From NCBI GenBank assembly GCA_963762565.1, contig CAVXLD010000005.1:548338-612337 (forward strand): 64,000 nt of DNA, in the 5' to 3' direction. A program made the translations under genes and the position numbers. Source of the DNA: an uncultured Verrucomicrobiae bacterium (GTDB lineage: Bacteria > Verrucomicrobiota > Verrucomicrobiia > Chthoniobacterales > JAFAMB01). How positions within the stretch are numbered: position 1 is the stretch's first letter; every line of letters begins with the position of its first letter. Below the pieces are notes generated by a model that searched no databases, was not told where the DNA came from, and saw only the letters and a list, made by a program, of their open reading frames with translations. Shown in pieces: positions 16,962 to 49,391 of this stretch.

Positions 16962-16979
16962 GATTCCCCGTCCCCTCGG

Positions 16980-21900: not shown

Positions 21901-22695
21901 ATGCTATCCTCCCCGAATCACTTGCCGCTTCCTGCGGCTGTCCTCGACGCCGGTCTCCGAGACCGCGAACATCTCCGCCACCTGTTACTTGCGCATCCAT
22001 CAGTGGATCTTAAAGCTGAACTCTCGGCGCTTGCGGAGGTTAGAGAGACCATCGAATCAATTTCTTTGCGCCTTTTGTTCTGCGACCTGGGAGACGATCC
22101 AGCGCAGATCTTCGCTTGGCTCGGCAACAGACCGCCGACCCTGGACGTGATTCTCATGACCAAAGAGGAAAAATGGGCTGCTCGCGCGTTCGAGGTGGAC
22201 GCTTTGGATTTTCTCTTAAAGCCGTTGTCGAAGGAGCAACTGAACCGCAGTCTTCGCCGGTTGTTACGGCTGGACTGGTCCAGCAATGTTAGCGCCGCAC
22301 CGGCGGAGCGAGCGTTTGTGCCTTTCGAACGCGGACGGCGTTTGGTGTCGGTTGATGAAATTTGTGCGATTCAAGCGGTCGGAAATTACACGCGGATTCT
22401 TTTTGCGGACGGCACCACCGAGGTTGCGCTGCGCCCGCTGCGGCGATGGGAGGAGACACTCCCCAAGAATAGCTTTTTGCGGATTCATCGATCAACACTC
22501 GCCAATACCAAGCGCGTGCGGCGGATTGAGATGACCGGGAAAGGTGACGAATGCTGGGCTGAGGTTGACGGCATCACGGAAAGACTTGCCGTCAGCAGGA
22601 GATCTTTGGGGGGGGTTCGCGCGGTTTTGAGTATGACCGAGTCAAAAACGGCTCGATTCGCCTTTAGCGGAGGTCAATTAAGCACGCCGCTTTAG
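21901..22695 (+). CDS. LytR/AlgR family response regulator (atypical receiver + LytTR domain)
   Basis: AFEVDALDFLLKP receiver end; LytTR motifs IQAVGNYTRI, FLRIHRSTLAN, LAVSRR. Confidence 0.9.
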   Translation: MLSSPNHLPLPAAVLDAGLRDREHLRHLLLAHPSVDLKAELSALAEVRETIESISLRLLFCDLGDDPAQIFAWLGNRPPTLDVILMTKEEKWAARAFEVDALDFLLKPLSKEQLNRSLRRLLRLDWSSNVSAAPAERAFVPFERGRRLVSVDEICAIQAVGNYTRILFADGTTEVALRPLRRWEETLPKNSFLRIHRSTLANTKRVRRIEMTGKGDECWAEVDGITERLAVSRRSLGGVRAVLSMTESKTARFAFSGGQLSTPL

Positions 22696-22700
22696 ATACC

Positions 22701-23825
22701 GTGAGCCAACCGTCCCCCAGACAGAACCTCTTCCGAGAAGCGGCCCTCGCCAAGATTCGCTCGCCGGAACAGCTCGACGCGTTGCTTCCAATTACTTCGC
22801 CTTTGGGCTGGTTGGCTTTATTGACGTCGGCCATCGCGCTGGGCGTCCTCATATTCTGGGCCTTTTTCGGCATGATCGTTCGCACCGCGACAGGCCAAGG
22901 CATTATTGTCCGTAATAGCGAATCGGGCCTCAGCTCGGTCGTCGGCCAAGGATCGGGGCTAGTCTCCGAAGTCCTCATAAAGCCCGGTGACAGTGTGCAA
23001 GCAGGTCAGGTCATGTTTTACTTGGATCTCACCCCGCTCAAGCAGCAGTTGGCCAGCGCCGAAAGCACGATGGAAAGTCTTCTGGCCCAAGATGCTAACC
23101 AAGCCAAGGACGAATCGGATAGGATCAAGACCTTACAAGAAAAATTGGCAAACCAGCAGAGCCTCTATGACCAAGGTCTCCTGACGAAAAGTCAGATCCT
23201 GGATACGAAGAACGCCATTTACGACGTCCAGGCGCGCCAGTATTCCCGGAACCAACAGATATCCGATCAGAGAGCCAGGATTCGGGATCTTGAACTTCGT
23301 CTGATACAAGAAGGAACGATTCGCTCCGTTCGTGCCGGGCAAGTGATCGAGGTCCAAGTCGGACTTGGTGATTTCATCCAGCCCGGGCGAGTGCTTGCGC
23401 GTATGGAAGGTCTTTCCGGTGACCGGGGAGCTCTGGTTTTTGTGCCAGCGAATGAAGGTAAGAACATCAAGACCGGCATGACGATCCGGATCTCGCCATC
23501 CACCGTAAAACCAGAGGAATACGGTTATATCCAGGGCAAGGTTAAAAGTGTCTCCTCTTACCCGGTGACCAGAGATGAGATGATGTTCTACCTGCAGAAT
23601 GAAGTACTGGTCAATCGCCTGCTTCAAAGCGGCGAGACGATTTCTGTAGCGGCGACCTTGGAATCGGATCCCAGCACCCCGAGCGGGCTACGCTGGTCTT
23701 CCTCCGAGGGTCCCGATCTTCCGGTGGAAGGTGGAACGGTATGCAGCGCCTCGGTTGTACTGGCACGGCAGCGCCCCATCACTTTGCTGGTTCCATTTCT
23801 CAAAAAGCAGCTGGGTCTGTATTAA
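22701..23825 (+). CDS. NHLP/NHLM bacteriocin system secretion protein (HlyD family)
   Basis: LFREAALAKIRSPEQLD..L, one TM helix, SPSTVKPEEYG, RWSSSEGP, C-terminal RPITLLVP. Confidence 0.92.
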   Translation: MSQPSPRQNLFREAALAKIRSPEQLDALLPITSPLGWLALLTSAIALGVLIFWAFFGMIVRTATGQGIIVRNSESGLSSVVGQGSGLVSEVLIKPGDSVQAGQVMFYLDLTPLKQQLASAESTMESLLAQDANQAKDESDRIKTLQEKLANQQSLYDQGLLTKSQILDTKNAIYDVQARQYSRNQQISDQRARIRDLELRLIQEGTIRSVRAGQVIEVQVGLGDFIQPGRVLARMEGLSGDRGALVFVPANEGKNIKTGMTIRISPSTVKPEEYGYIQGKVKSVSSYPVTRDEMMFYLQNEVLVNRLLQSGETISVAATLESDPSTPSGLRWSSSEGPDLPVEGGTVCSASVVLARQRPITLLVPFLKKQLGLY

Positions 23826-25993
23826 TGGCGATTCGTCTACCGAACCGGCGCGTGCGCACCCCGACGGTGATCCAAATGGAAGCTGTCGAATGCGGCGCGG
23901 CGGCACTGGCCATCGTGCTTGGCCACTATGGTCGAATTGTTCCGCTCGAGCAGTTGCGCGAGGAATGCGGCGTGTCACGCGACGGAAGCAGGGCGCTGAA
24001 CGTCATTAAAGCAGCCACGCGTTACGGTCTGGAGTCAAAAGGCTTTAAGTACGATATCGGGAAGCTGGCCAAAGTGCGGTTGCCGGCCATCTTGTTCTGG
24101 AATTTTAATCACTTTGTCGTGCTGGACGGTATCAGCGGGCACGGCAAAGTCTTCCACATTAACGACCCAGCCCGAGGCCGCCGAAAAGTCCACGCCGACG
24201 AGTTCAACGACAGTTATACAGGCATAGTTCTGACTTTTCAGCCGACTCCGGAATTTCGAAAAGGGGGCCGCAGACCCAGCACGCTGAGGTTTCTCGGTGC
24301 ACGGCTGCAAAAGAGCCGCACCGCCTTCGTCTATGCGTTTCTTTGCGCACTGCTGCTGGTAATTCCCGGTCTCATCATCCCGGCGTTTATGCGGGTTTTC
24401 ATCGATGATTATCTGGTTGGCTCAGAAAAGACCTGGATCCGCCCGCTCCTTGCCGGAATGGCCGCTGTTCTGCTTCTGCAGATGCTCCTCACGGCGCTTC
24501 AGCAATATTGCCTGCTGCGTTTTCGAGAGAAGCTCTCACTGGCAGGCTCTGGCCGTTTCCTTAAGCATATTTTGCGGCTACCGATGCGCTACTTTTCCCA
24601 GAGGTTCGCCGGCGAGATCGGTTCCCGGCTTCCTCTTAATGATGAGGTGGCGGGGGTGGTCGGGGGGCAGCTCGCGAAAATCTCGTTGGATCTGGTGCTA
24701 GTGGTTTTCTTTGCCGTCTTGATGTTTTTGTATGACCCGGTCCTCGCCACAATCTGTGTAGGCGTGGCGCTGATCAACGCAGCGATTGTCCAAATCGTAG
24801 GCCGAGCCCGCGCCGACAAGAATCGGATTGCAACTCAGCACTATGGAAAGATGACCGGCACGTCGATCAACGGTCTTCAGATGATCGAGACGTTAAAGGC
24901 GAGCGGAGGAGAAGATGAATTCTTTGGACGTTGGGCGGGGTATCAAGCCCAGTATCTAGCTGAAAAACAAGCACTGCTTACCTTTTCGCAATATATTATG
25001 ACGGTCCCGACGGTGCTCAACGCCATGAGCACGACGATCGTCCTGGCGGTGGGCGCTTTCCGGATCATGGACGGCAGCATTACCTTGGGAACCTTTGTGG
25101 CGTTTCAGGCGTTAGCCGGCCAATTCGCGGGTCCATTGAATAGCTTGATCCAATTTGCCAATAACCTTCAGATGTTAGCTGCGAACATCACCCGCATCAA
25201 TGACGTATTCCAGGCGCCGGAGGATCCCATCTACGCGGCGCAACCGGATACGGCTAAGTTTGCATCCGTTTCCAGTCTCAGCGGGCGACTAGAGCTTATC
25301 GATGTCACGTTCGGCTATTCTCCCCTTGAGAGACCGCTGATCGAAAATTTTAGCCTGAGCCTTTCACCCGGTTCTCGAGTGGCGCTGGTTGGCGGCAGCG
25401 GCAGCGGTAAATCCACCATCGCTAAGCTCGCCTCGGGGCTCTATCGGCCTTGGAGGGGCGAAGTCCGATTCGACGGCTATACGATCGATGAAATTCCGAG
25501 GGACCTCTTTGCGATTTCCGTGGCCATGGTAGACCAGGATGTCATCTTAATTTCGGGTTCAGTAAAAGACAATCTCACCCTGTGGAACGCCTCAGTGCCC
25601 GAACAGGCGATCCACCGGGCGTGCGACTATGCCGGAATCGCTCACGTCATCGCCTCGCGCAGCGGCGGCTATCAGAGCGAGCTTGGTGAAGGCGGGGGCA
25701 ATCTTAGCGGCGGGGAACGCCAACGTTTGGAGATCGCTCGCGCCCTGGTGCACAGTCCCAGCCTTCTGATTCTTGATGAAGCGACCAGTGCTTTGGATGC
25801 CACCACCGAGATGGTAATCGATCAAAACCTGCGCCGGAGCGGCTGCGCCTGTTTAATCGTGGCACACCGGCTAAGCACGATCCGGGATGCTGACGAAATC
25901 ATCGTGATGGACGCTGGCAAGATCGTCGAGCGGGGAGTGTTCGAGGAATTACACGCCCGAAGAGGCAGCCTATTTCGCTTGATGGAACAATGA
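23825..25993 (+). CDS. NHLM-type C39 peptidase-containing ABC transporter (LanT-like)
   Basis: QMEAVECGAA (catalytic Cys), NHFVV (His), INDPA (Asp), TMD, GGSGSGKST, LSGGERQR; TAATG overlap with hlyD. Confidence 0.95.
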   Translation: MAIRLPNRRVRTPTVIQMEAVECGAAALAIVLGHYGRIVPLEQLREECGVSRDGSRALNVIKAATRYGLESKGFKYDIGKLAKVRLPAILFWNFNHFVVLDGISGHGKVFHINDPARGRRKVHADEFNDSYTGIVLTFQPTPEFRKGGRRPSTLRFLGARLQKSRTAFVYAFLCALLLVIPGLIIPAFMRVFIDDYLVGSEKTWIRPLLAGMAAVLLLQMLLTALQQYCLLRFREKLSLAGSGRFLKHILRLPMRYFSQRFAGEIGSRLPLNDEVAGVVGGQLAKISLDLVLVVFFAVLMFLYDPVLATICVGVALINAAIVQIVGRARADKNRIATQHYGKMTGTSINGLQMIETLKASGGEDEFFGRWAGYQAQYLAEKQALLTFSQYIMTVPTVLNAMSTTIVLAVGAFRIMDGSITLGTFVAFQALAGQFAGPLNSLIQFANNLQMLAANITRINDVFQAPEDPIYAAQPDTAKFASVSSLSGRLELIDVTFGYSPLERPLIENFSLSLSPGSRVALVGGSGSGKSTIAKLASGLYRPWRGEVRFDGYTIDEIPRDLFAISVAMVDQDVILISGSVKDNLTLWNASVPEQAIHRACDYAGIAHVIASRSGGYQSELGEGGGNLSGGERQRLEIARALVHSPSLLILDEATSALDATTEMVIDQNLRRSGCACLIVAHRLSTIRDADEIIVMDAGKIVERGVFEELHARRGSLFRLMEQ

Positions 25994-28878
25994 GCGCCGA
26001 AGCCCACGCATCGACCGGTATCGCTTTGTCTGGAAGCCATATCTTGAGTCTGGGCGAGACGACGAGCCGCATTTTACAGGTCTCGAAAGGCGCTCTGGAG
26101 TTGTTCCTGGTTTTGGGAGAGCCAGGGGTAGACGCCAGGCGTCAACACCTGGCCACGGTCTCAGAAGGAAAGTCGTGCTTCGATGTTGGATTTAACTTAT
26201 CAGACGCTGGTTTTACTATCTTAGTCACTGGCCAGCCTGGAACCGTCGTTCAGCTGGTAGAAATGGACCAGCTCGACCGTCAGGAGCTCTCAGTACGATT
26301 AGGCGAGTGGCTAACCACCTTCGTTCACGGAATCTCCAAGCTGGTCAACGATGAGAGGGAGCTGCACCGTTCCGCGAAGCCGGGTCCTCTTGGGCCGATG
26401 GCAGCCGGGGAAATTTTAGGCATACCACAGGGTGTTTGCTGGTGGAGCGCCGATGGTGCGGAGGCGACGTATTTAGGCCTGGAAACTCTGCGACTCCGGT
26501 ATGTCCCTTTGGTCTCGCGTGGTTGGGTCATCATCTCCAGACCGATCCCCTCTTCCCAGATCCTGGACAGTGACGAGTTTTTGGAATTAGCCGACTGGCA
26601 ATCGGAGGTTGCTGCCGCGCACGATTTCCTTAGTAAAGTCATTCGCAGCGCATTGGCTAAACAGGAAGCAAAAGCGCGAGAAACGGCGGCTGAGCGATCG
26701 CAACTTCGCCAGGCAGCCGAGGATGGCGGATGGCAAGACATCGCCACCGTTCTTTCCGGCTCTCGGGAGGGGCGGTCTGCGCTGCGGTCTGCGCCCGGTG
26801 GATCTTCGGTGGGAGTCGCCTTTCAGCGCGTAGCCACCCTTCTGGGCGCGGAATTGCGATCGATGCCAACGCTGGTCAAAGGCGGTAGCGCTTCCGCTAT
26901 GGTCGGACTGTTAGCGCGAGAGGCCCAACTGCGCTGGAGAGATGTGCTGTTGACCGGGCGCTGGTTCACTCGTGACCACGGCCCAATGATTGGCTTTCTG
27001 TCGGCCTCGGATGAAGCAGTTGCCCTTTTGCCGAAGGGATCGGCCCGCTATCAAATGGTACGAGCAGACGGCACCAGAGTCCGGGTGAACGCTGCCACGG
27101 TTGGGCAGTTGCGGCCCTCAGCCATTTCGCTTTACCGCACCTTGCCATCCCGAAGCCTGGGAATGAAGGATGTCATTCGATTCACAGCCAGGGGAAGCGC
27201 TCGCGACCTGGTGATGATCGTCACGATGATTGTCATCACCGGGCTGCTAGGCATGCTCACACCGATGGTAACCGCCAGAATCTACGATGTCATCATCCCC
27301 CAGTCAGAGCGTACCCAGATGACGCAGATCGCGCTCATTCTGATCAGCGCAGCAATTATCAAATGTCTCTACGAGCTCGTTCGGGCCGTCTCTTTGCTAC
27401 GAGTCGAAAACCGGGCACATGCCCACTTGGAAGCTGCGATCTGGGACCGGTTGCTTCGACTTCCGACGGGTTTCTTTCGAAAATTCACGGCCGGCGATCT
27501 TGCCAACCGCGCGCAGGGCATCACCACCGCTCATCAACTGCTTTCTTCAACGGGGACCACGATTCTGTTTATCCTGCCCGCCGCCCTGTTCAACCTCATC
27601 GTAATGTTCTTTTACAGTGCGCCTTTGGCTCTCTGGGGGCTGGGAATTGCGCTGATAGGAACTCTGATCTCGGTCGGTTTCAGCGTCGCGGAGGTCTTGA
27701 TCCTGCGAAAACAATACGAGATTCGGGGCCTGCTTTCCGGTCTCGTTTTCCAATTGATCAACGGCGTCGCGAAGTTTCGCCTCGCCAATGCAGAGCAATT
27801 CGCTTTTGCTGAGTGGGCGCGACCGTATGCTTCGCAGGAGAGGCTGTCCGTCCAAGCCGGAAAGTGGAGAGTTGCTTCGGGTACGTTTTTCTCCGGGTTC
27901 TCACTGCTCACCACGGGGATCATTTTCTGGTTGGTATCCCAGGAAATGGAGAAGGCGGTCAGCGCACCAGCGTTTACTACCGGCGCCTTCCTCGCTTTCA
28001 ATAGCGCGTTTGGGGCGCTGATCGGAGCGATGATTCAGGTAGGTCAGAATTCGCTGGGTTTACTGCAGCTTTTTCCGCTGCTCGAACGCACTAAGCCCAT
28101 CTTTGAAGCAGAACCCGAGATCGCCCTAAACCGGCTCTCTCCAGGCGAACTGCGCGGCGAGATTGAAATTGCGAATATTCGTTTCACTTATGGCGCAGAC
28201 TCACCGCCCATCCTATCCGGATTTTCGCTAAAGTTGCGGGCCACGGAAATGGTGGCTCTAGTTGGGCCGTCGGGCTCTGGCAAATCCACTGTGCTCCGGC
28301 TTCTTCTCGGTTTCGAAACACCCAATGCCGGTTCGATCTTCTATGACGGCAAAGATCTGCAGACCCTGGATTTGAGAGACGTGCGCCGGCAGATCGGCGT
28401 TGTGTTGCAGACCACCCGGCTCGTGACCGGTGACATTTTCCGGAACATCGTCGGCGAGTCGAACTTGACCCTGGACGACGCATGGGAAGCAGCGGAAATG
28501 GCGGGACTCGCCAATGACATTCGCGCGATGCCCATGCAGATGCACACGCTGATAAGCGAAGGCGGCGGCGGTTTTTCCGGTGGGCAGCGGCAACGATTGG
28601 CCATCGCGAGGGCATTCGCTCACAAGCCTCGGATGCTTTTCTTCGATGAGGCGACCAGCGCACTGGACAATCGAACCCAGGCGATTGTGACGGAGTCGCT
28701 GCAGCGGATGCAAGTTACCAGGGTCATCATTGCTCACCGGCTTAGCACGATCGTGAAAGCGGATCGCATCGTCGCGCTCCGCGAGGGAAGAGTCTTTGAG
28801 GAAGGTACTTACGCGGAGCTCATGGAAAAAAAAGGATTCTTTTATGAGCTCGCTCGCCGCCAGCTTGCCTCAAGATGA
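25990..28878 (+). CDS. NHLM-type second ABC transporter (no peptidase domain)
   Basis: long N-terminal extension, TMD, GPSGSGKST, FSGGQRQR, FFDEATSALD. Confidence 0.92.
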   Translation: MSAEAHASTGIALSGSHILSLGETTSRILQVSKGALELFLVLGEPGVDARRQHLATVSEGKSCFDVGFNLSDAGFTILVTGQPGTVVQLVEMDQLDRQELSVRLGEWLTTFVHGISKLVNDERELHRSAKPGPLGPMAAGEILGIPQGVCWWSADGAEATYLGLETLRLRYVPLVSRGWVIISRPIPSSQILDSDEFLELADWQSEVAAAHDFLSKVIRSALAKQEAKARETAAERSQLRQAAEDGGWQDIATVLSGSREGRSALRSAPGGSSVGVAFQRVATLLGAELRSMPTLVKGGSASAMVGLLAREAQLRWRDVLLTGRWFTRDHGPMIGFLSASDEAVALLPKGSARYQMVRADGTRVRVNAATVGQLRPSAISLYRTLPSRSLGMKDVIRFTARGSARDLVMIVTMIVITGLLGMLTPMVTARIYDVIIPQSERTQMTQIALILISAAIIKCLYELVRAVSLLRVENRAHAHLEAAIWDRLLRLPTGFFRKFTAGDLANRAQGITTAHQLLSSTGTTILFILPAALFNLIVMFFYSAPLALWGLGIALIGTLISVGFSVAEVLILRKQYEIRGLLSGLVFQLINGVAKFRLANAEQFAFAEWARPYASQERLSVQAGKWRVASGTFFSGFSLLTTGIIFWLVSQEMEKAVSAPAFTTGAFLAFNSAFGALIGAMIQVGQNSLGLLQLFPLLERTKPIFEAEPEIALNRLSPGELRGEIEIANIRFTYGADSPPILSGFSLKLRATEMVALVGPSGSGKSTVLRLLLGFETPNAGSIFYDGKDLQTLDLRDVRRQIGVVLQTTRLVTGDIFRNIVGESNLTLDDAWEAAEMAGLANDIRAMPMQMHTLISEGGGGFSGGQRQRLAIARAFAHKPRMLFFDEATSALDNRTQAIVTESLQRMQVTRVIIAHRLSTIVKADRIVALREGRVFEEGTYAELMEKKGFFYELARRQLASR

Positions 28879-30662
28879 TCCCCCGGAAACCAACACTGCT
28901 CTTTACGCCCATCCTGACGGGCTTGGTCGCAATCTGCTTCTCTCTGGACTCGATGCAGGGTCAAACCGGTGAAAAGCCGAGTCCCACTCCGCAGTTATCC
29001 CCGAGCCCGTCTTTGCCGTTGATTCCGGGGGAAAAGGAATCCGATCCCTTAACGGGGCCGGCGGTCCCGTGGGTTAGTCCGCTCCCGGTTCCTACTAAGC
29101 GGGATCTCCAAATAATCCGCGAGGCATTCGAAAAAAAAGCTTACGACCCCTTTTCTCGCGTCGACCTTGGGTTTGCCATTCCCAGGATTTCGGCGCTGAA
29201 GGCCGTCCGGGTCACCCTGGACTTAAGTCCTCAAATCCTTTTTCAGAAAGCAGCGGTCCAGGGGAGTGCTGGAACGGTCCAGGTAACCCAGGGAGCCTTT
29301 GACACCACGATCACCGGCTCGATCGCTCCCAATGCCTCACGCAACGAGCGCTACATCCAGAGCAAGCCTGCGCCCGGTGCAAACCCGGTAGCCTTCCCGA
29401 ATCCGCTGGCGGCGCGGAGCGGCGTCATCAACTATGAACTCGGCCTGCAAAAAACCCTGGAGAACGGCATCGTCATTAACCCAAACGTCAGTTTCAGCCA
29501 AAGCACCAACACCGATTTCGACCATCAATACAATGATACTAACCAGGGAACAGTCAATTTCACGGTTACGATTCCCTTGGCCAAAGGCGGCGGCACACTG
29601 GCGAACAAGGCGCCGGAGATCGCCGCTCGTTACGATCTCCTGGCCAGCGTCCTGCAACTCCGGTTCATCAGCGCGCAAAGTTTGCTCAACACGATCCAAG
29701 CTTATTGGGCCTGCAAAGCGGCGGAGGAGACCTATCAACTTCAGGTGGAAGCGGTCGAAAGTGCGGATAGGCTGGTCACAATCAGCGCCGCGTTGATTCA
29801 AGCGGATGAGCGCGCCCCGGACCAGTTGCCACAGATTCTGGCCGAACGGGGCAATTCGATTGCGAACCGGACACAGGCGGAGAGCTCTCTGATAATCGCA
29901 CGCCAGAACCTGGCGGTAGAAATGGGGTTTAGCGCTGCCTCGCTCCCGGTCGCTCCGCTGGTCGCGGACGAGTTTCCTCAACCGCCGGAAACTGAGCACT
30001 ACCCGGCAGCCGACAAGCTGATCGCCTCTGCGCTTCTTTTACGGGACGATCTCAGAGGCGTGCGAGAAACCGTAAAATCCCAGAAAGTCCTGATGGACGC
30101 GGCCTACTTGAACCTGCGTCCCACGGTGAATCTGCAGTTGGCGGCCAGCTATGTTCCGCTGCAAAGCCGAACAAATCTGACGAACACCCATGGGAATACT
30201 TGGGAGGTAGGCGCACTACTCAGTCTCAACTGGCCCGTGGAAAACAACACGGCGATTGGCTTGTATATTCAAAGCCAGAGCTCGTTTCAGAACAGCCAGA
30301 TCACCGTCGAAAGCACTGAAATGGCTGTTGAATCGAGCGTGATCACGGCTTTAGCCCAGTTAAAAGCGGCGGCAGTTAACGTTAAAGTTTATCGGGATTC
30401 GGTGCGCTGGTACCAGCAGGCATTGGCAGCTCAGGAAAAACTTTTCCAGTTAGGGCAAGCCACATTGGTAGACACGATCACCATCCGGCAAAACTTGATT
30501 AATGCGGAACTCTCTTACATCACGGCCCAGCAAAGCTACGCTGTCTCTCTTACTCAACTTCGCTTTGCCACCGGCACTCTGATCTTTTCCGACGAGAAAG
30601 GAAGCTGGATCGATAGCGAGGTCTGGAAGACCGTTCCATTTATGTTTTTGAAAAAGCCATGA
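28875..30662 (+). CDS. TolC family outer membrane efflux protein
   Basis: signal peptide, two helical OEP-like repeats, ends LRFATG; ATGA-coupled to the ABC gene. Confidence 0.85.
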   Translation: MIPRKPTLLFTPILTGLVAICFSLDSMQGQTGEKPSPTPQLSPSPSLPLIPGEKESDPLTGPAVPWVSPLPVPTKRDLQIIREAFEKKAYDPFSRVDLGFAIPRISALKAVRVTLDLSPQILFQKAAVQGSAGTVQVTQGAFDTTITGSIAPNASRNERYIQSKPAPGANPVAFPNPLAARSGVINYELGLQKTLENGIVINPNVSFSQSTNTDFDHQYNDTNQGTVNFTVTIPLAKGGGTLANKAPEIAARYDLLASVLQLRFISAQSLLNTIQAYWACKAAEETYQLQVEAVESADRLVTISAALIQADERAPDQLPQILAERGNSIANRTQAESSLIIARQNLAVEMGFSAASLPVAPLVADEFPQPPETEHYPAADKLIASALLLRDDLRGVRETVKSQKVLMDAAYLNLRPTVNLQLAASYVPLQSRTNLTNTHGNTWEVGALLSLNWPVENNTAIGLYIQSQSSFQNSQITVESTEMAVESSVITALAQLKAAAVNVKVYRDSVRWYQQALAAQEKLFQLGQATLVDTITIRQNLINAELSYITAQQSYAVSLTQLRFATGTLIFSDEKGSWIDSEVWKTVPFMFLKKP

Positions 30663-30790
30663 GCGCGTCATCTTCGTACTCGGCTCCGGGGACGCGGAGT
30701 GTTGGAGTGATTGAGTACTGGAGTATTGGCGGCCACGTCGGACAAGCCGCTCGTTCCCCGACTTCACCATTCGCTGGGGGAAAGGCGGAA

Positions 30791-33422: not shown

Positions 33423-33449
33423 ACAATCGATAAAACGAGAAGCAAGATC

Positions 33450-39482: not shown

Positions 39483-39664
39483 GACACGGGCACTTTTGCG
39501 CTGGCCGAACGCCTCAATGGCCACATCTGAACCGCCGCTTGTCAGGGTTTGGACCGCCGCTCGTCCCAATCACGTTGCCTGCGCGGTTAGCCACGGTAAT
39601 CTAGCCGTATTTCGTCGCCCCAAGTGGGCGATGCGACAGCAATTAATAGATGAGAGACAAGAAC

Positions 39665-40133: not shown

Positions 40134-40637
40134 TTACTTTTGTTCCAGAAGCGGCAGTATCTCGGACTCGAAAACCCCCTGGCTCACGGCGCCTAGATGA
40201 GACGTGACGATGTTACCTTTGCGATCGAGGACAAAGGTTACCGGGACGGCGGTGACACCTCCATAATCGGCTGCGGTTTTTTCGTGGCCAAGTACGACCG
40301 GATAATTAATTCCGACCTGCATCACAAATGGCTTCACATCAGACGCTTCAGTCTCCACAGAAATACCTATCACGGTCAATCCTTGGGCAGCATACTTTTT
40401 CTGCAGTGCAATAAATCCTGGGATCTCCACTCGGCACGGCGGGCACCAGAACGCCCAAAAATCTAAAATCACAACTCTCCCTTTAAAGTCGGAAAGCTTC
40501 ACAGTTTTGCCGTCGAGATCATTTAGTTGCCACTCTGGAGCTTGGGTTGTGGCTGCGTTTGCCCGGTATAGCGGGCCCTCGAACAAAAGGATTCCGGCGA
40601 CCGCAACGCCAATAGAGAGATAAAAATTCCTGCTCAT
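40134..40637 (-). CDS. TlpA/ResA family thiol-disulfide redoxin
   Basis: signal peptide, LSDFKGRVVILDFWAFWCPPC, VPVTFVLDRKG. Confidence 0.9.
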   Translation of the reverse strand: MSRNFYLSIGVAVAGILLFEGPLYRANAATTQAPEWQLNDLDGKTVKLSDFKGRVVILDFWAFWCPPCRVEIPGFIALQKKYAAQGLTVIGISVETEASDVKPFVMQVGINYPVVLGHEKTAADYGGVTAVPVTFVLDRKGNIVTSHLGAVSQGVFESEILPLLEQK

Positions 40638-40904: not shown

Positions 40905-41774
40905 TCAGAATGAATCGCTCTTGACGGCGAGTCCGATGGGTCCGGGCAGCCCTTTGATGAAGCTGGGGCTAATCGCGGCTCCGGTGGTGGCGTCGTATTT
41001 GCCAACCGTGCCGACGAATTCGTTCGCCACGAAGAGGATGTTGCCCGACACCGCGAATCCTTCGGGTCCGGGCAGCCCTGTGATGAAGTTGGGGCTAATC
41101 GCGGCTCCGGTGGTGGCGTCGTATTCGCCAACCGTGTTGTCTGCGTTCGCCACGAAGAGGATGTTGCCCGACACCGCGAGTCCGACGGGTCCGGGCAGCC
41201 CTTTGATGAAGCTGGGGCTAATCGCGGCTCCGGTGGTGGCGTCGTATTTGCCAACCTTTTTGCCTGCGTTCGCCACGAAGAGGATGTTGCCCGACACCGC
41301 GAGTCCTTCGGGTATGCTCAGCCCTGTGATGAAGTTGGCGTTAATCGCGGCTCCGGTGGTAGCCTCGTATTTGCCAACCGTGTTGCCTGCGTTCGCCACG
41401 AAGAGGATGTTGTCCAACACCGCGAGTCCGATGGGTCCGGGCAGCCCTGTGATGAAGCTGGGGCTAATCGCGGCCCCGGTGGTGGCGTCGTATTTGCCAA
41501 CCTTGTTGCCTGCGTTCGCCACGAAGAGGGTGTTGCCCGACACCACGAGTCCTTGGGGTATGCTCAGCCCGGTGATGAAGCTGGCGTTAATCGCGGCTCC
41601 CGTTTTGGCGTCATATTTGCCCACGACCCCAATGAGTGGGCTTCCAGCAAACCCGGTGACATACAGCTGTGCGCAGGCGTTTCTTGGCATGGCCCAAAGC
41701 GCGGCAGCGGCGATAAGAAATGCGTATAAAGCGCGCAAAAGGGGCCCCCAATTTGAGGTGAGGGTTGTCTTCAT
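40905..41774 (-). CDS. secreted tandem-repeat (beta-propeller-like) protein
   Basis: signal peptide then six 41-aa repeats GKYDATTGAAISPSFITGLPGPxGLAVSGNILFVANAGNTV. Confidence 0.8.
   Translation of the reverse strand: MKTTLTSNWGPLLRALYAFLIAAAALWAMPRNACAQLYVTGFAGSPLIGVVGKYDAKTGAAINASFITGLSIPQGLVVSGNTLFVANAGNKVGKYDATTGAAISPSFITGLPGPIGLAVLDNILFVANAGNTVGKYEATTGAAINANFITGLSIPEGLAVSGNILFVANAGKKVGKYDATTGAAISPSFIKGLPGPVGLAVSGNILFVANADNTVGEYDATTGAAISPNFITGLPGPEGFAVSGNILFVANEFVGTVGKYDATTGAAISPSFIKGLPGPIGLAVKSDSF
40921..41620. repeat. 123-bp coding tandem repeat, six units
   Basis: unit anchors at 40981, 41107, 41230, 41353, 41476, 41599. Confidence 0.9.
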
Positions 41775-42189: not shown

Positions 42190-42549
42190 ATGAGCCAAGA
42201 AAAACTACAGGCCTTCGCGAAAGCCGTTAGCAAGAGCGAAGAGTTGCAAAAGCAATATCTTTCGATTCAAGTCGAAATAGCCAAATCGAGCGCCGAAAAG
42301 CTCGCCAAGTTGTCAGAGAGCGCCGGGACGCCTTTTACCGCTGAGGAGTACTTGAACTCGGTGGCAGAGTCATCAGAGGAGATGTCCACAGAGCAATTGC
42401 ATCGTGTGGCCGGAGGACTTTCCGCAGCGGAAGAAATTTATATTGCGTCGTCTATATTGACTGCGGGCATGACTTGTTGGGTTAAGGCGATCGTGTCGGC
42501 CTCAACTCAGGGTGGCGCCGAAAAATGTGTTGAATTACCCGGACTTTAG
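42190..42549 (+). CDS. Nif11-leader precursor 15
   Basis: core LSAAEEIYIASSILTAGMTCWVKAIVSASTQGGAEKCVELPGL. Confidence 0.92.
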   Translation: MSQEKLQAFAKAVSKSEELQKQYLSIQVEIAKSSAEKLAKLSESAGTPFTAEEYLNSVAESSEEMSTEQLHRVAGGLSAAEEIYIASSILTAGMTCWVKAIVSASTQGGAEKCVELPGL

Positions 42550-43023: not shown

Positions 43024-43380
43024 ATGAGCACAGAAAAACTCCAAGCCTTCGCGGAAGCTGTTGGCAAGAGCGAAGAGCTGCAAAAGCGCGTGGCTTCGAT
43101 TCAGGCGGAATCCGCCAGAACGACCGCCGAAAAGCTCGCCAAGTTGTCCGAGAGTGCCGGTACGCCTTTTACCGCTGAGGAGTACTTGCACTCGGTGTTA
43201 GAGTCATCGGAGGGGATGTCCGCGCAACAATTGCATAGCGTGGCCGGTGGAGTTTGGGACCCGTCGGCCACGAACATTGTCACCTCTATCTTTTCTGCAG
43301 GCATAGTGTGCGGACTCTTTGCGACCGCTTCAGCCATTGGGAAGGGAGACGCTGATCAGTGCCAAGTTAAGATGGGATAA
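43024..43380 (+). CDS. Nif11-leader precursor 16
   Basis: core VWDPSATNIVTSIFSAGIVCGLFATASAIGKGDADQCQVKMG. Confidence 0.92.
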   Translation: MSTEKLQAFAEAVGKSEELQKRVASIQAESARTTAEKLAKLSESAGTPFTAEEYLHSVLESSEGMSAQQLHSVAGGVWDPSATNIVTSIFSAGIVCGLFATASAIGKGDADQCQVKMG

Positions 43381-43853: not shown

Positions 43854-44225
43854 ATGAGCCAAGAAAAACTGCAGGCCTTCGTAGAAGTCGTTAGCAAGAG
43901 CGAAGAGTTGCAAAAGCGATTCAATTTGATTCAGATGGAAGCGGTCAAATCGACCGCTGAAAAGCTGGCCAAGTTGTCCGAGAGTGCCGGTACGCCTTTT
44001 ACCGCTGAGGAGTACTTGAAGTCGGTGGCAGAGTCATTAGAGGAGATGTCCACGGAACAATTGCGTAGTGTGGCCGGTGGTGAATTCTCTCTCTCTGCTG
44101 ATGAGGGTCTCAAGTTTATGAACTCGATTATAGGTAGTTTCGGTGGTAGCCAATGCGTAGTCACGCTGATTCATTCGCTCGCAGAAAAGGGCAACCCTTT
44201 AGAGTGTATACCAGTTAGAAAGTAA
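43854..44225 (+). CDS. Nif11-leader precursor 17
   Basis: core EFSLSADEGLKFMNSIIGSFGGSQCVVTLIHSLAEKGNPLECIPVRK. Confidence 0.92.
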   Translation: MSQEKLQAFVEVVSKSEELQKRFNLIQMEAVKSTAEKLAKLSESAGTPFTAEEYLKSVAESLEEMSTEQLRSVAGGEFSLSADEGLKFMNSIIGSFGGSQCVVTLIHSLAEKGNPLECIPVRK

Positions 44226-44253
44226 CCTGATAAATAAGACCCGAAGAAGGATC

Positions 44254-44360
44254 ATGAGCCAAGAAAAACTCCAGGCCTTTGCGGAAGCTGTTCGCAAGAG
44301 CGAAGCGTTGCGAAAACGATTCGCTTCGATTCAGTAGGAGGCCGCCGAAAAGCTCGCCAC
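44254..44360 (+). pseudogene. truncated precursor with in-frame stop
   Basis: MSQEKLQAFAEAVRKSEALRKRFASIQ* fused to next cassette. Confidence 0.8.
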
Positions 44361-44527: not shown

Positions 44528-44884
44528 ATGAGCCAAGAAAAACTACAGGCCTTCGCGGAAGCTGTTAGCAAGAGCGAAGAGCTGCAAAAGCGATTCAATT
44601 CGATTCAGGTGGAAGCGGCCCGAACAACCGCTGAAAAGCTGGCCAAGTTGTCTGAGAGCGCCGGTACGCCTTTTACCGCTGAGGAGTACTTGAATTCGGT
44701 GGCAGAGTCATCAGAGGAGATGTCCGCGCAACAGTTGCATGGCGTGGCCGGTGGAGTTTGGGACCCGTCGTCCCATAACATCTTAGTCTCTATCGGTACT
44801 TTAGGCTTAGGGTGTGCACTCAAGGCGATCATTTCAGCCGCGGAGGGAGACGTTGATAAGTGCCAAATGAAGCGGCCAACTTAA
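44528..44884 (+). CDS. Nif11-leader precursor 18
   Basis: core VWDPSSHNILVSIGTLGLGCALKAIISAAEGDVDKCQMKRPT. Confidence 0.92.
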   Translation: MSQEKLQAFAEAVSKSEELQKRFNSIQVEAARTTAEKLAKLSESAGTPFTAEEYLNSVAESSEEMSAQQLHGVAGGVWDPSSHNILVSIGTLGLGCALKAIISAAEGDVDKCQMKRPT

Positions 44885-44979: not shown

Positions 44980-45285
44980 ATGAGGCAACCTAACTTCCAA
45001 CAAATGACCCGTCGCGAGATCGAAGATTACATGATCGAAAGAAGCTTAGTAGATCCAGAGTTTCGTGCTCGTCTGATCGAAAATCCACGTGAGACGGTAT
45101 CTGGGCTCGGGTTGCCGGTGGGCGCAGACGTCAAGATTCAAGTATTGGTAGAAGAACCCGACTCGTTCTGCATCGTACTGCCGCGAGTCCTGCGGGAGTC
45201 GCATGAACTCCCTGCGGAAGCTTTGAGCGATATAGCCGGTGGCGGCAGCTTTCCTCTGGCAGATCTTTTCAAGGGTTACATCTAA
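44980..45285 (+). CDS. NHLP (nitrile hydratase-like leader) precursor peptide
   Basis: TRREIE..IERSLVDPEFRARLIENPR..IQVLVEE..IVLP..EL..EALSDIAGG; 13-aa core GSFPLADLFKGYI. Confidence 0.9.
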   Translation: MRQPNFQQMTRREIEDYMIERSLVDPEFRARLIENPRETVSGLGLPVGADVKIQVLVEEPDSFCIVLPRVLRESHELPAEALSDIAGGGSFPLADLFKGYI

Positions 45286-45339: not shown

Positions 45340-45681
45340 ATGAGCAAAGAAAAACTCCAGGCCTTCGCCGAGGCGGTTAGTAGAAGCGAAGAGCTACAAA
45401 AACGATTGGCTGAAATTCAGGTGGAAACCGCTAGGTTGACAGCCGAGAAGATGGCCAAGTTGTCTGAGAGCGCTGGTATCCCCTTCACCGCAGAGGAGTA
45501 TTTGAAGTTGGTGGCAGAGTCATCAGTGGAGATGTCAGCAGAACAATTGCAGAGCGTGGCCGGTGGAAAAGCTGGGGAATCAGCTGTCAGAGAGACTACT
45601 TACCCTTGGGAACCAGGGTGTAACAATACGCGCGTTACGGTTTTGCAGGGAGTTGAGTGTTTGCCGAAACCGGCGCTGTAA
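45340..45681 (+). CDS. Nif11-leader precursor 19
   Basis: core KAGESAVRETTYPWEPGCNNTRVTVLQGVECLPKPAL. Confidence 0.9.
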   Translation: MSKEKLQAFAEAVSRSEELQKRLAEIQVETARLTAEKMAKLSESAGIPFTAEEYLKLVAESSVEMSAEQLQSVAGGKAGESAVRETTYPWEPGCNNTRVTVLQGVECLPKPAL

Positions 45682-45765: not shown

Positions 45766-48700
45766 ATGGCAATCGACCTGATGGATGTCTGGACGGAGGC
45801 GTTGTCGCCGGAGCGGGATACTCGTCGCTTGGAGCAACGGCTTCGCTTTCTTGGATGGAGCCACGATGAGGCGCGAAACCGCTTGTCCGACGATTTTTTA
45901 TTCGATGCGCGAAAGGAACCTGCCGCGCTCTCTTTGCTGGAAGGCGGTCTTGCGCGTTTTGAGCGCTCAGGCCCCGCCAAACGGAGGGATAGCGGGCGCG
46001 GGAGACAGAGTTCCGATAAAGTCCTTCCTTTCGAAGAAGTACTCTCCCCGTTCGCGTTCGCTGCCGCCTCAGACCTGATACGAAAAGAGAGACGACGCTG
46101 GCTGAAACTGATGTCGAGACCCGCCCGGCGCGCTTTAGTCAGGAGTTTACTTGAGCGGTTGTGCGAAACCGCCGCTCCGGCACTATCGGCGGCTCTGAGG
46201 CGGCGCCCTCAAGCGCTCTACCTGATGTTACCGGGGGTGCGTCTCCCCCAAAAAAGAACCTTACCTGCGTTTCGTAGACGGATTGCGACAGGGAGGTCTG
46301 CGCACCATGCTTGCTGATTTAACCGTGCTCGGGCGCCTAATTTGCGCACGGATGGAACAATGGCAGGCTGCTACCGCCGAGTTTCTTCTGCGTCTACAGA
46401 ATGACGCTCCGGTGTTGCAAGCGAGTTTTGGTCTCGAGAAAATCTGGAGCGCTCATCTCCAATGTGACCTTGGTGATTCCCATCAGGAGGGAAGGAACGT
46501 GATGGCAATCACCTTTCTTGATGGCAAGCGGCTCGTATATAAACCGCGTTGCGTGCGTATGGGCGAGGCCTGGTTCGAATTGTTGGAATGGCTGAAACGG
46601 GAAGACGCCAGCTTTTCGTTGTCAGCACCGCGAGTGCTGAGTCGCCAGAACTATGGTTGGGTGGAATGGGTTGACCCGGCGACGAATCCAGATGAACGCG
46701 GAGCGGAGCTCTACTACCAACGCGCTGGAGAACTGCTGGCTTTAGCCTGGCTCTTCTCCGCCACGGACCTGCACCAAGAAAATGTTATTGCTACCCAGGA
46801 CGGGCCTGTGATTATCGATCTCGAGACTTTATTTACTCCGGTCGTACGACCGTTTTTTACCAGCCGGCAAGAACTGGAGCTGACCGCGGGAACAAATGAC
46901 GTCGGCGTTGGCATCCTGATGACTTCGCTCTTACCGGTATGGCAGGTGAACGAAGACGGTCGCGCCCGGGACCTCAGCGGGTTCGCCGGCCGGATGCGAG
47001 AGGAAGCATCTTATGCTGAACCAATTTGGGTCGAGCTCGGCACAGACCAGATTCGACTCGAACCAAGGCTCGTGCGAGGTTCGCAACCTCATAATATTCC
47101 GAGAGACGGCGAGGGGCGTCTTGTCCTGCCTTACGATTATAGCGAAGCCATTGTGGAAGGGTTTATTCGCACGACGCGTTTTATGCTTGGGCGCCGGACG
47201 CAGCTCCTGGATCCGAATGGGATCCTGGCTCCGTTTCGGGAAGGGCAAATACGCTACTTGATTCGTGACAGCCAAATCTATGGGGTGATGCTGCACCGGC
47301 TCCTAAAACCAGAATTTCTCGGCAGTTTCGCGGTTCGGGATATCGAGATCGAGAAGTTAGCCCAAGCCTATTTCCCTATAACGGTTGAGGAGCCCCGGCC
47401 CGACGCCTGGAACTGTTATGACGGTGAGCGACACGCACTCACTAAGGGCGATGTTCCGCTCTTTCACGCAAAGACCGACGAGTTCACGTTGCATGGTGAC
47501 GGGGGTATCCAGGTCCACGATTATTTTTGGAGAACGGGCTGGAACGTCGTGCAAACTAGATTGTCCAATCTCGATGAAGCCGCTATCGCCGAGCAAGCCG
47601 GGTTGATCAGAGCGAGCCTTGAGTCGAGCTCAATCCGTCCAGGTATTGCGCGCGATGAAACTTCCGTTGGGCTGATCACCGAGCAGAACCACGACCGAGA
47701 AGGAAGCATCCTCAATCCGCCTCCGGATTCGACCTCAAACCATCTAGTCGAACACGCAACAAACGCCTCCCGTTTGTTCAATGCCGCCGAGCGGATTGCA
47801 GCCGACATCGAGCGCCGCACCGTTCCGCTCCGGCGAGGCGGTGTCACCTGGCTCAGTGTCTCTTTTGACCCACTCTATAAAAGACAAGTCTCAGCGGTGC
47901 TCGGATTGGACCTCTATGGCGGCAACCTCGGAGTCGCTATTTTCTTGGCTGCTCTTGCCTATACCACCGGGGAGCGCCGTTGGGCGGCTCTAGCCGAACA
48001 ATGCACGCGCAAACAACTAGACCAGTTACAAGCGCCCGAGATGCGGGCGGTCATCCAACGCATGCCACTCGGGATCGGAACTGGCGTTGGCTCCCTGATT
48101 GAAGGATGTCGAGTACTTGGGGGACTCCTGGGTGACGAGCGGTATCTACTCAGTGGCGGGTACTTTTCCGACTTCGTTTCTGTCGCTGCCGAAGCGAAAC
48201 AGATGGAATCGGATGTACTTGGCGGCATGGCCGGAGGCATCCTGGCACTCTTAAACCTCCACCGCGCAATATCTGCACCCGAGCTACTGGAAAGAGCGAC
48301 CAATCTTGGCTTGGCGCTTTTGGAAAACCGGGTGCAAGCTTCGACCGGACATGCCGTCTGGTTGAGCAGCTTCGCCGAGCGACCTCTGACTGGATTCGGA
48401 CACGGAGCTGCAGGGATTGCTCTGGCTCTGCATCGGCTCGGACAGGCGACAGGGGAGACCATCTTTTCCGCGGCCGCGGAGGAAGCGATCGGTTATGAGC
48501 GGGCGGTATTTGATCCGAAGGCAGTTAATTGGCCGGATTTTCGTCGCGGTGCATTCAAGCCCGGCCAGAAGTCGTTCATGTATGGGTGGTGTACGGGGCC
48601 GGCGGGTATCGGTCTTGCCAGACTGGCCCAATTTGGTGGAGCGACCCCTGAGGTCAGTGAGGAAATACAGGCTGCCATCGCCGACGCTACGTCGGGACCA

Positions 48701-48979
48701 ATTTTCCCGGCAGGTCATCTGTGTTGTGGCCGATGCGGACGGATAGAACTGCTTCTCGAGGCGGCCAATCGTCTCACCGACAATACACTGCGAGATGCAG
48801 CGGTCTCCCAGGCGATACTGCTCGAATCGCAGGCTCAGGAATCAGGATTTTATGCGCTAAACGGAGCCGATCGCGGCCGGCTGTTTGCGCCTTCTTTTTT
48901 TCAGGGCACTTCCGGCATAGGCTATACATTTCTCCGGATACTGAACCCTCAATTACCTTCCGTTCTATCGTTAGGCTAG
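45766..48979 (+). CDS. lanM: class II lanthipeptide synthetase LanM, CCG (ProcM-like) type; one frameshift near 46250
   Basis: dehydratase GDSH, LVYKPR, TDLHQENVIA, IDLETLF; cyclase DLYGG, GFGHGAAG, WCTG, LCCG, FFQGTSGIGY; about 1070 codons when joined. Confidence 0.95.
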
Positions 48980-49184
48980 AAGACCGCGGCTACCTCGCTA
49001 GAGATATAACATACTTGATTTATCTTTGTAGTTAGAGCTTTGACTTGATATGCTCCGAACGCAGCAAAGTTATTCAGCTCGGAGCCTGTCACAAGTCACA
49101 CTAGTTAAGCTAGGAGGAACGAGCCTGCATTTCTGCGATGACCGTGATAATCGGCTTCCAGTGTGCTTTTTGAGCCTGTTTTCA

Positions 49185-49391
49185 CATCCAGCCGACACTA
49201 TACCAATTGTTCCGCGGACGTCTCCTCTGATGACTCTGCCACCGACTTCAAATACTCCTCTGCAGTGAAGAGGGTACCAGCGCTCTCGGACAATTTGGCC
49301 ATCTTCTCGGCTGTCGATTGAGAAATTTCCACATGCAGGGATGCGGGTCGTTTTTGTAGCCCCTCGCTCTTGCTAACGGCCTCGGCGAAGC
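49185..49391 (-). pseudogene. decayed Nif11 precursor downstream of lanM
   Basis: revcomp reads FAEAVSKSEGLQKR..TAEKMAKLSESAGTLFTAEEYLKSVAESSEETSAEQL, no start, degenerate GG site. Confidence 0.8.

Follow-up and report, generated by a model that had tools for sequence, protein, structure and literature searches.

One CCG-type LanM and an array of conserved-scaffold Nif11 precursors in a predicted lanthipeptide gene cluster of a Chthoniobacterales-like bacterium

Introduction

When a single lanthipeptide synthetase gene stands beside many precursor genes, do the precursors form a combinatorial library, or are they the maintained copies of one peptide scaffold? The question is raised by a 27-kb gene cluster at positions 21901-49449 of a 64,000-nucleotide (nt) stretch, the window, of the 612,337-bp contig CAVXLD010000005.1 (assembly GCA_963762565.1, positions 548,338 to 612,337), in which one gene for a class II synthetase (LanM) follows 19 genes for precursors with Nif11-type leaders. 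Known enzymes of this kind can have many substrates, with 29 reported for ProcM and 79 for SyncM (PMC10027976, PMC8524650), and the cores of the prochlorosins are described as showing no conservation at all (PMC10027976). A preliminary description of the window had taken the cluster for a prochlorosin-like combinatorial library.

The reading reached here, to which a probability of about 70% is given, differs from that one. The cluster would be a verrucomicrobial (Chthoniobacterales-like) class II cluster in which one LanM of the Cys-Cys-Gly (CCG) type acts on ~19 conserved-scaffold precursors to give two-ring lanthipeptides, with a shared exporter and LytTR control. Dehydration, ring formation and ring pairing, cleavage, export, LytTR binding, signalling and any antimicrobial activity are predictions from the DNA sequence.

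Results

The precursor array and its core scaffold

The inventory was drawn up from open reading frame (ORF) calls with their translations, Pfam profiles, and NCBIfam profiles with curated cut-offs. Regulator, exporter, precursors, an NHLP-leader peptide and LanM are all encoded on the plus strand, except for one precursor. The single LanM, C39-peptidase ABC (ATP-binding cassette) protein, second ABC protein, HlyD, TolC, LytTR and NHLP proteins and 19 precursors of the preliminary description were each recovered in place within 27 kb by Pfam and NCBIfam profiles. For comparison, 80 loci with LanM relatives were fetched, comprising four verrucomicrobial loci from metagenome-assembled genomes (MAGs; L001-L004) and 76 others.

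The 19 intact Nif11-leader precursor genes lie between 31429 and 45681, 18 on the plus strand and one on the minus strand; the repeat pairs mentioned in the list are described further below.

31429..31794, plus strand: p31429, divergent core with 2 Cys
31952..32218, plus strand: p31952, core cut off early where one nt is missing from a G run, the remainder intact in the next frame to ~32320
32497..32862, plus strand: p32497, strict scaffold
33450..33812, plus strand: p33450, divergent core with 2 Cys
34376..34729, plus strand: p34376, strict scaffold
34943..35284, plus strand: p34943, divergent core with 2 Cys
35497..35856, plus strand: p35497, strict scaffold
35902..36258, plus strand: p35902, strict scaffold, starting with GTG and lacking its own repeat pair
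36309..36683, plus strand: p36309, strict scaffold, lacking its own repeat pair
36960..37307, minus strand: m37307, the sole minus-strand precursor, scaffold-like core with 2 Cys
37755..38117, plus strand: p37755, strict scaffold
38212..38586, plus strand: p38212, strict scaffold, lacking its own repeat pair, used as query for the family search
38814..39170, plus strand: p38814, strict scaffold
39665..39982, plus strand: p39665, short 29-aa core with 1 Cys
42190..42549, plus strand: p42190, scaffold-like core with 2 Cys
43024..43380, plus strand: p43024, strict scaffold
43854..44225, plus strand: p43854, divergent core with 2 Cys
44528..44884, plus strand: p44528, strict scaffold, at the head of the gene string p44528-NHLP-p45340-lanM
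45340..45681, plus strand: p45340, divergent core with 2 Cys

By alignment, p31952 is a paralogue of the full-length p43854, and the short core type of p39665 is also found in the metagenomic relatives P0186 and P0188.

Each of the 19 leaders spans exactly 76 amino acids (aa), the last two being Gly-Gly. Their identity over the 171 pairs averages 78% (range 65-99%), and 29 of the 76 columns are invariant. The preliminary description, which spoke of near-identical ~76-aa leaders and variable cores, was right as to leader length, the Gly-Gly junction and the variation in core sequence, but overstated the likeness of the leaders and missed the scaffold that the cores share. The Pfam Nif11 profile (PF07862) exceeded its cut-off of 23.8 in 18 precursors, the exception being p36309 at 21.9, and a profile of 108 family precursors matched PDB 9zn4_A, 'Nif11 domain-containing protein', over positions 1-76 (E 2.2e-6). 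A hidden Markov model (HMM) of the leader, built from the window genes, found 25 ORFs in the window, 16 in L001-L004 and none in the other 76 loci; because it is specific to the window and these four loci, chance is excluded as the origin of the Nif11 array.

The cores are 12-48 aa long and hydrophobic, with a net charge of -3 to +1, and exactly two Cys are present in 17 of the 19. Ten cores follow a strict scaffold, in which Asn-Ile/Val and two further residues precede a Ser, followed after 5-9 residues by Cys, after another 6-9 by Ser and after another 6-12 by the second Cys. The pattern Ser/Thr..Cys..Ser/Thr..Cys fits 17 cores, being loose enough for some chance matches.

The scaffold extends well beyond the window. 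A family search with p38212 gave 180 proteins at E<=1e-3, of which almost all are environmental metagenome sequences and one is named Chthoniobacterales; among the best 120, which were examined, 117 have a recognisable Gly-Gly junction. When these 117 cores were aligned with nine cores from L001-L003 (n = 126, the window's own proteins included), the four scaffold positions were occupied by Ser in 122 of 125 cores, Cys in 121 of 121, Ser or Thr in 115 of 121 and Cys in 122 of 122, and exactly two Cys were present in 117 of the 126. The same scaffold recurs beside the LanMs of L001-L004, which are of only 43-49% identity and are accompanied by 3-5 precursor-like ORFs each (16 in total). No named family was matched by the cores in Pfam, NCBIfam or the PDB sequences, the last searched with one core alone (best E 1.4), in agreement with the earlier remark that they were not recognised from any named compound.

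The scaffold Ser is as conserved as the Cys, and each Ser stands N-terminal to a Cys, which fits two Ser-derived lanthionine rings of ~9 and ~11 residues. Spans of 9-11 residues are within the range of a CCG enzyme, given that the rings made by SyncM can reach 14 residues (PMC8524650). Under the proposed mechanism, the one ProcM-like (CCG-type) LanM would bind the 76-aa Nif11 leader common to ~19 precursors, dehydrate the two conserved Ser and form two rings by thioether bonds to the conserved Cys, probably between the Ser 8 residues before the first Cys and that Cys, and between the Ser ~10 residues before the second Cys and the latter.

Core identity averages 44% among 12 paralogues. For 12 scaffold paralogues, the Nei-Gojobori ratio of nonsynonymous to synonymous substitutions (dN/dS) is 0.13 in the leader and 0.48 in the core with dS ~1, only 56 and 41 of the 66 pairs being usable owing to saturation. 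These ratios, with dS near 1, indicate that the precursor copies are old and maintained and that selection on the core is relaxed but not diversifying. Given the two-Cys cores, the strict scaffold, and the recurrence of the scaffold in MAG loci and in >100 metagenomic relatives, the cores are read here as one long-established, expanded family of paralogues, predicted to give hydrophobic lanthipeptides with two rings, and not as a random library.

A prochlorosin-like library would instead pair a promiscuous LanM with hypervariable cores of many unrelated topologies, diversity itself being what is selected. The CCG type of the enzyme agrees with such a library, as CCG LanMs have been tied to many-substrate promiscuity (PMC10027976), and so do the number of precursors, the gap between leader identity (78%) and core identity (44%), and the 5 to 7 cores that lie off the main scaffold. 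Yet two Ser and two Cys are nearly invariant across the 126 cores, one strict pattern accounts for 10 of the 19 in the window, the scaffold is retained in distant relatives, the core dN/dS is not >1, and the precursors stand in a single array instead of being scattered. The combinatorial library proposed in the preliminary description is therefore considered unlikely.

The LanM enzyme and its frameshift

The synthetase that would act on this family is encoded directly downstream of the array.

45766..48979, plus strand: lanM, coding for a class II lanthipeptide synthetase with the CCG motif, its two frames being 45766-46257 and 46241-48976
46245..46255, plus strand: C5A6 homopolymer run at the lanM frame shift

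LanM scored 654.6 bits with TIGR03897 (cut-off 304), 324.9 bits with DUF4135 and 143.2 bits with LANC_like. It has the DUF4135 and LanC-like cyclase matches of a class II LanM, above cut-off, with its N-terminal 164 residues in another frame. The earlier view of the locus, as a LanM (class II) lanthipeptide cluster that has Nif11 leaders together with a regulator and an NHLM-type exporter, is borne out by these matches and the CCG motif.

The ProcM-like subgroup is defined by Cys-Cys-Gly replacing Cys-His-Gly (CHG) at the third zinc ligand (PMC10027976, PMC8524650). The window LanM carries HLCCG at residues 812-816 of an 898-aa ORF, and Cys814, Cys815 and Gly816 are invariant in all 14 aligned LanMs. 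The CCG motif was found in 78 of 78 fetched loci covering the site, and the outgroups P0049, P0074, P0039 and P0046 have CHG. By its motif the enzyme belongs to the ProcM-like subgroup, though its ORF is interrupted. In a FastTree tree of 88 rows (L044 and L052 left out as truncated; a quick method, with long branches flagged), the window LanM, three metagenomic relatives and the four Verrucomicrobiota loci form one clade with support 100. Its sister clade comprises 68 cyanobacterial and some additional CCG LanMs. The window LanM is only 31-35% identical to the cyanobacterial relatives among the fetched loci, a set that does not contain ProcM and SyncM themselves.

The single LanM of the preliminary description corresponds to one lanM gene, but this gene is split by a frameshift at ~46245-46255, and a 69-aa lanM fragment is present on the minus strand (see below). 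Residues 1-164 of the intact homologue P0001 (1071 aa, 93% identity) align with 45766-46257 and residues 160-1071 with 46241-48976; each half of lanM is 90-93% identical to this homologue and contains no other stop. Because the halves are otherwise intact, a DJ-1 gene is likewise split, and p31952 has a homopolymer deletion, the frameshift is probably an assembly error or a very recent mutation.

The DJ-1/ThiJ/Hsp31-like gene (3675-4459, minus strand) matches residues 4-63 of PDB 1u9c_A at 4142-4459 and residues 87-200 at 3675-4145, and a third frame (3722-3868) appears to hold its C-terminal end; this split suggests an indel-prone assembly. Genes for an enoyl-CoA hydratase (4909-5755, minus strand) and a phage-type integrase (19483-20794, minus strand) look split over overlapping frames, as judged by frame reading, and Pfam found nothing at E 1e-3 in the out-of-frame pieces of these three genes. 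The exporter, LytTR and NHLP genes of L004 are in many short frame pieces, those of its close relative L001 being intact, and the breakage in L004 looks like assembly indels, as in the window.

The interrupted lanM gene can also be taken at face value. The precursors would then be unmodified double-glycine bacteriocins, cleaved and exported only, with lanM dead and the two Cys joined as a disulfide, perhaps through a ResA-like oxidoreductase. Exactly two Cys in 17 of 19 cores and a periplasmic thiol-disulfide oxidoreductase gene within the array would suit this explanation. However, an uninterrupted LanM match stands beside the same precursor type in L001-L004, and metagenomes, in which LanM homologues of 78-93% identity occur, contain full-length homologues of 1059-1091 aa. 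The two Ser, each N-terminal to a Cys, are conserved to the same degree as the Cys, the oxidoreductase has no homologue in the 80 loci, and the frameshift lies in a homopolymer of an assembly with other split genes. Unmodified products are accordingly rated as distinctly unlikely, and lanthipeptide formation by an intact LanM is retained as the preferred explanation.

Taxonomic position of the host

The nearest named LanM is a partial protein of a Chthoniobacterales bacterium (75%), and the nearest LanM-bearing genomes, those of the four Verrucomicrobiota loci, are Verrucomicrobiae, Chthoniobacterales and Terrimicrobiaceae MAGs. A flanking fumarase has its best named match in a Verrucomicrobia bacterium (88%). 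As the LanM clade, the precursor homologue and the fumarase agree, the host is assigned to the Verrucomicrobiota as a soil-type, Chthoniobacterales-like organism and not a cyanobacterium, and the non-cyanobacterial origin supposed in the preliminary description is confirmed to this extent.

The exporter and the upstream flank

Five genes between the regulator and the array encode a predicted export system and a lipoprotein.

22701..23825, plus strand: HlyD-type periplasmic adaptor of an NHLM exporter (TIGR03794, 262.7 bits; cut-off 156.2)
23741..25993, plus strand: C39-peptidase ABC exporter (TIGR03796, 1016.3 bits; cut-off 853.3)
25990..28878, plus strand: second ABC permease/ATPase (TIGR03797, 825.1 bits; cut-off 709.4; match begins at residue 275)
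28875..30662, plus strand: TolC-like outer-membrane channel (PF02321 OEP, 105.4 bits)
30659..31216, plus strand: 185-aa predicted lipoprotein with a lipobox-like LSGC, its start overlapping the TolC stop by 4 nt

The TIGR03794, TIGR03796 and TIGR03797 genes are adjacent and on one strand, as in NHLM bacteriocin export systems. The N-terminal domain of the C39-ABC protein matches Peptidase_C39 with 121.1 bits over profile positions 2-132 of 133, and an internal ATG near 23825 is its likely start. In the second ABC protein, ~270 extra N-terminal residues (25990-26800, plus strand) precede the TIGR03797 match and belong to no Pfam family. TolC homologues adjoin the exporter in L001-L004. The lipoprotein had no Pfam or NCBIfam match, and a Protein Atlas search gave only scores <0.9 and no family; a weak homologue (23% identity, E 2e-6) holds the same place after TolC in L003 only. 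In the proposed pathway, the C39 domain of the first ABC protein would cleave after Gly-Gly, and the two ABC proteins with HlyD and TolC would export hydrophobic, neutral-to-acidic peptides of 37-48 aa.

The integrase fragment has as neighbours, at 15181-18728 on the minus strand immediately upstream of the cluster, the genes of an AbiEi/AbiEii pair (PADLOC, 267.5 and 187.1 bits) and of a partial M78 peptidase resembling RmrA. This stretch may be a mobile-island remnant. No tRNA genes were found in the window.

Paired upstream repeats, the LytTR regulator and the NHLP peptide

The features on which the proposed control of the array is based are as follows.

21901..22695, plus strand: LytTR response regulator (PF04397, 50.9 bits; ORF open from a TTG at 21853)
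44980..45285, plus strand: NHLP-leader peptide (TIGR03793, 56.9 bits; cut-off 50.9), Gly-Gly followed by a 13-aa Cys-free tail
31291, 32346, 33212, 34225, 34792, 35367, 37624, 38663, 39535, 42039, 42876, 43703, 44377, plus strand: starts of repeat pairs
36861, 37444, minus strand: starts of repeat pairs

A conserved region of ~150 nt, containing a pair of 10-12-nt direct repeats with a period of 22 nt, lies upstream of 14 of the 19 precursors. In total, 15 such pairs were counted, none of them outside 31289-44407, where 0.02 were expected. Five precursors lack a pair; each is located 46-158 nt behind another array gene, with which it is probably co-transcribed. The last repeat pair precedes the string p44528-NHLP-p45340-lanM. 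Ahead of the minus-strand m37307, on its own strand, lie an NHLP relic (37452-37541) and one of the repeat pairs (37414-37446; start 37444). Since Rfam gave no matches in the whole window, the upstream element is not a known RNA family. A terminator scan of the array showed no enrichment (21 against 19.1 expected). Repeated 'GFEPPLVP' translations, considered as a possible mobile element, were rejected as such, being the upstream repeat element read in frame.

The intergenic DNA of the relatives is otherwise dissimilar, yet the repeat-pair architecture is kept in L001-L004. Proximal half-sites are paired in 3 of 6 cases in L001, 3 of 5 in L002, 1 of 3 in L003 and 2 of 7 in L004, compared with 1 of 30 in the other 76 loci (1.42 Mb). 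Homologues of the LytTR protein (44-54% identity) are encoded in each of L001-L004, whereas the 76 other loci have none. The receiver domain of the window protein scored 24.6 bits, below the cut-off of 30.2, and in an alignment with the receiver of PDB 6m8o its Asp, Thr and Lys positions are kept. In bacteriocin regulons, LytTR regulators bind paired direct repeats as dimers (PMC8515946). The repeat pair is a plausible candidate LytTR site, and the regulator would probably bind it in the promoter region of most precursor units.

Other regulatory genes are present at greater distance or in relatives. Two soluble PAS/GAF histidine kinases (9060-12254) and two response regulators, one of LuxR type, are encoded at 9060-13560, ~10 kb upstream, with no evident link to the cluster. 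Two relatives, L002 (~6150-6873, plus strand) and L003 (8611-9504, minus strand), have LuxR/GerE-type regulators, encoded in the interval from LytTR to the precursors or close to lanM; the cluster of the window has none.

The NHLP-leader peptide has the leader of its family, ending in Gly-Gly and scoring above cut-off. In all four relatives a homologue (50-64% identity), fragmented in L004, comes directly after the LytTR gene, whereas the window NHLP gene lies 22 kb from LytTR; in L001 and L002, a repeat pair is located between the two genes. The tails of the relatives are 13-17 aa long with the conserved end Phe-x-Gly-Tyr-Ile/Val. A profile search of 1.84 billion representatives returned 3864 NHLP-like proteins at E<=1e-3, a number that fell to 4 at E<=1e-30, and short tails similar to that of the window are present in P0198, P0199, P0201 and P0202. 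The NHLP-leader peptide may serve, through its tail, as an exported signal of the LytTR circuit.

In its complete form, such a circuit would use an NHLP-derived linear (or dehydrated) peptide of ~12-16 aa with an aromatic C-terminus, cut and exported by the C39-ABC/TolC system and acting through an unlinked sensor and LytTR on ~14 repeat-pair promoters. This peptide-pheromone model is doubtful. If true, it would mean that a whole arsenal of two-ring lanthipeptides is switched on at once, that quorum-sensing logic of the Blp/plantaricin kind exists outside the Firmicutes, and that an NHLP leader protein has a new role other than that of a precursor. LytTR together with Nif11 or NHLP was not found among the matches listed in a literature search.

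Relics and passenger genes in the array

The array also holds remnants of its own genes and two genes of other kinds.

33333..33449, plus strand: leader relic (HMM positions 32-62)
37490..37565, plus strand: leader relic (HMM positions 57-76)
39306..39500, plus strand: frameshifted leader relic without core
44203..44334, plus strand: leader relic (HMM positions 1-27)
49201..49449, minus strand: leader relic downstream of lanM (HMM positions 3-70), with neither Gly-Gly nor core
37452..37541, minus strand: NHLP gene relic (tblastn, E 2e-5, first of three)
42761-42820 and 43589-43648: NHLP 5' relics (tblastn, E 8e-4 and 4e-4)
33813..34079, minus strand: lanM relic, a 69-aa cyclase-domain fragment with WC and CCG motifs (TIGR03897 positions 804-890, E 1.5e-13)
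40134..40637, minus strand: ResA/TlpA-like periplasmic thiol-disulfide oxidoreductase (AhpC-TSA, 100 bits) with a WCPPC motif and a signal anchor
40905..41774, minus strand: secreted NHL/beta-propeller repeat protein (NHL and PQQ_2 matches)

At least five precursor leader relics were thus detected in or beside the array with the leader HMM. From the stop-proximal remnants upstream of many precursors, it is evident that the duplicated unit formerly comprised an NHLP gene and a Nif11 gene. The lanM relic matches residues 934-1024 of P0001 by tblastn, and 59 of its 69 residues are identical to the window's own LanM.

The ResA-like protein scored 103.7 bits with NF002854, below the family cut-off. 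The NHL-repeat protein, which shares its mid-array place, consists of at least five tandem 41-aa (123-nt) units of 84-93% DNA identity. Both genes were considered as cluster members and rejected, as the 80 loci contain no homologue of either; they are probably passengers in the array.

So many remnants raise the possibility that the whole cluster is decaying and that the array is a duplication graveyard no longer yielding products. At least five leader relics, at least three NHLP relics and a lanM relic would be in keeping with this, as would the frameshifts in lanM and p31952 and the integrase fragment and AbiE pair just upstream. Nonetheless, the 19 full-length leaders are under purifying selection (dN/dS 0.13) despite dS ~1, the four exporter genes and the regulator are intact and above curated cut-offs, and the halves of lanM have no other stop and remain 90-93% identical to an intact homologue. 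Decay is therefore regarded as highly unlikely, and a maintained lanthipeptide cluster remains the reading adopted below.

Discussion

Weighing of the evidence

A number of observations speak against a functional, LytTR-controlled lanthipeptide cluster and have to be set beside those above. All 19 precursors fall below the cut-off of TIGR03798 (leader_Nif11; 20.0-32.0 bits against 32.3, E 1e-7 to 6e-4), and on these scores they are classed as a divergent branch of that family. An AlphaFold2 model of p38212 with 108 relatives has a mean predicted local distance difference test (pLDDT) score of only 60.7, with 72-78 in the helical leader and 43-53 in the core, and is too poor to serve in fold comparison. 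The two conserved Cys could equally form a disulfide, and with lanM frameshifted as assembled, this strain may not modify anything. Another named match of the fumarase is labelled Burkholderia sp. (87%). With respect to control, the 15 repeat pairs of the window are paralogous copies and not independent, so that the functional evidence rests on few sites in the relatives. In the window, no repeat pair precedes the LytTR/exporter operon or stands directly before lanM, and a sigma-70 consensus scan of the array showed no enrichment (5 promoters against 8.3 expected). No histidine kinase is linked to the cluster at 21-50 kb of the window or in L001-L003, the only kinase-like ORF in L002 lying ~7 kb past lanM beside its own receiver gene. 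Of the components of a LytTR/peptide-pheromone three-component regulon, the regulator and paired repeats are present and the linked kinase is absent. The self-contained, regulated cluster of the preliminary description is plausible apart from this kinase.

Relation to known systems

Like ProcM and the prochlorosins of Prochlorococcus MIT9313 and SyncM of Synechococcus MITS9509, the cluster combines one CCG LanM with many Nif11 precursors ending in Gly-Gly, and large rings are possible. In contrast to these, its host is a verrucomicrobium, its LanM belongs to a separate sister clade distant from the cyanobacterial relatives found, its precursors stand in one tandem array with a conserved two-Ser/two-Cys scaffold in place of hypervariable cores, and a LytTR regulator and an upstream repeat element are added. 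Neither the hypervariable cores nor the marine picocyanobacterial host that characterise the prochlorosins is found here.

The Nif11/NHLP, LanM and NHLM clusters of Nostoc, Cyanothece and other organisms (Haft et al. 2010, PMC2887384) share with the window the TIGR03794/03796/03797 exporter, Nif11 and NHLP genes beside LanM, and paralogous expansion, with 18 N11P in Cyanothece PCC 7425. The LanM-linked sets in the available part of that paper are mostly cyanobacterial and Verrucomicrobia are unmentioned there, and the window adds TolC, the lipoprotein, LytTR, and an NHLP peptide with only a 13-aa Cys-free tail. The Nif11 class II family of Walker et al. is likewise from Cyanobacteria (PMC7268733).

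With the three-component class II bacteriocin regulons of Firmicutes (plantaricin, Blp, ubericin K; PMC8515946), this cluster has in common LytTR, paired repeats upstream of several operons and a C39-ABC protein, and its four relatives also encode a short peptide with a Gly-Gly leader, the candidate signal, beside the regulator. The window differs in having no linked kinase, a Gram-negative host with TolC, a 90-aa NHLP leader on the candidate signal, and products predicted to be LanM substrates. Conserved-core families of the roseocin type (PMC10027976) also have several precursors per LanM and a conserved leader and core framework, but they have NHLP leaders, CHG LanMs, actinobacterial hosts and two peptides acting together, as opposed to Nif11 leaders, a CCG LanM and 19 paralogues.

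Clusters with many Nif11 paralogues, LanM and NHLM (PMC2887384) and CCG LanMs outside cyanobacteria (PMC8524650) are already published. No paper on Chthoniobacter lanthipeptides or on Verrucomicrobia with Nif11 was found in a literature search, though the supplements of PMC8524650 and PMC7268733 might list verrucomicrobial clusters. The present cluster differs from these in its phylum, in a peptide family built on a conserved scaffold, in a tandem array whose genes mostly have promoter regions of their own, and in a candidate control module of LytTR and NHLP.

Significance

The cluster extends systems of one LanM and many Nif11 precursors to the Verrucomicrobiota, an abundant but poorly cultured phylum. 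It also brings to light a peptide family that is unnamed in the libraries searched, with >100 metagenomic members and a conserved predicted two-ring scaffold. That a CCG LanM can accompany such a conserved-scaffold family bears on the assumed link between CCG enzymes and diversity-oriented evolution. A concrete, testable model of regulation follows from the LytTR regulator, the conserved repeats and the short NHLP peptide and, for engineering, 19 natural variants of one scaffold amount to a ready-made mutational scan.

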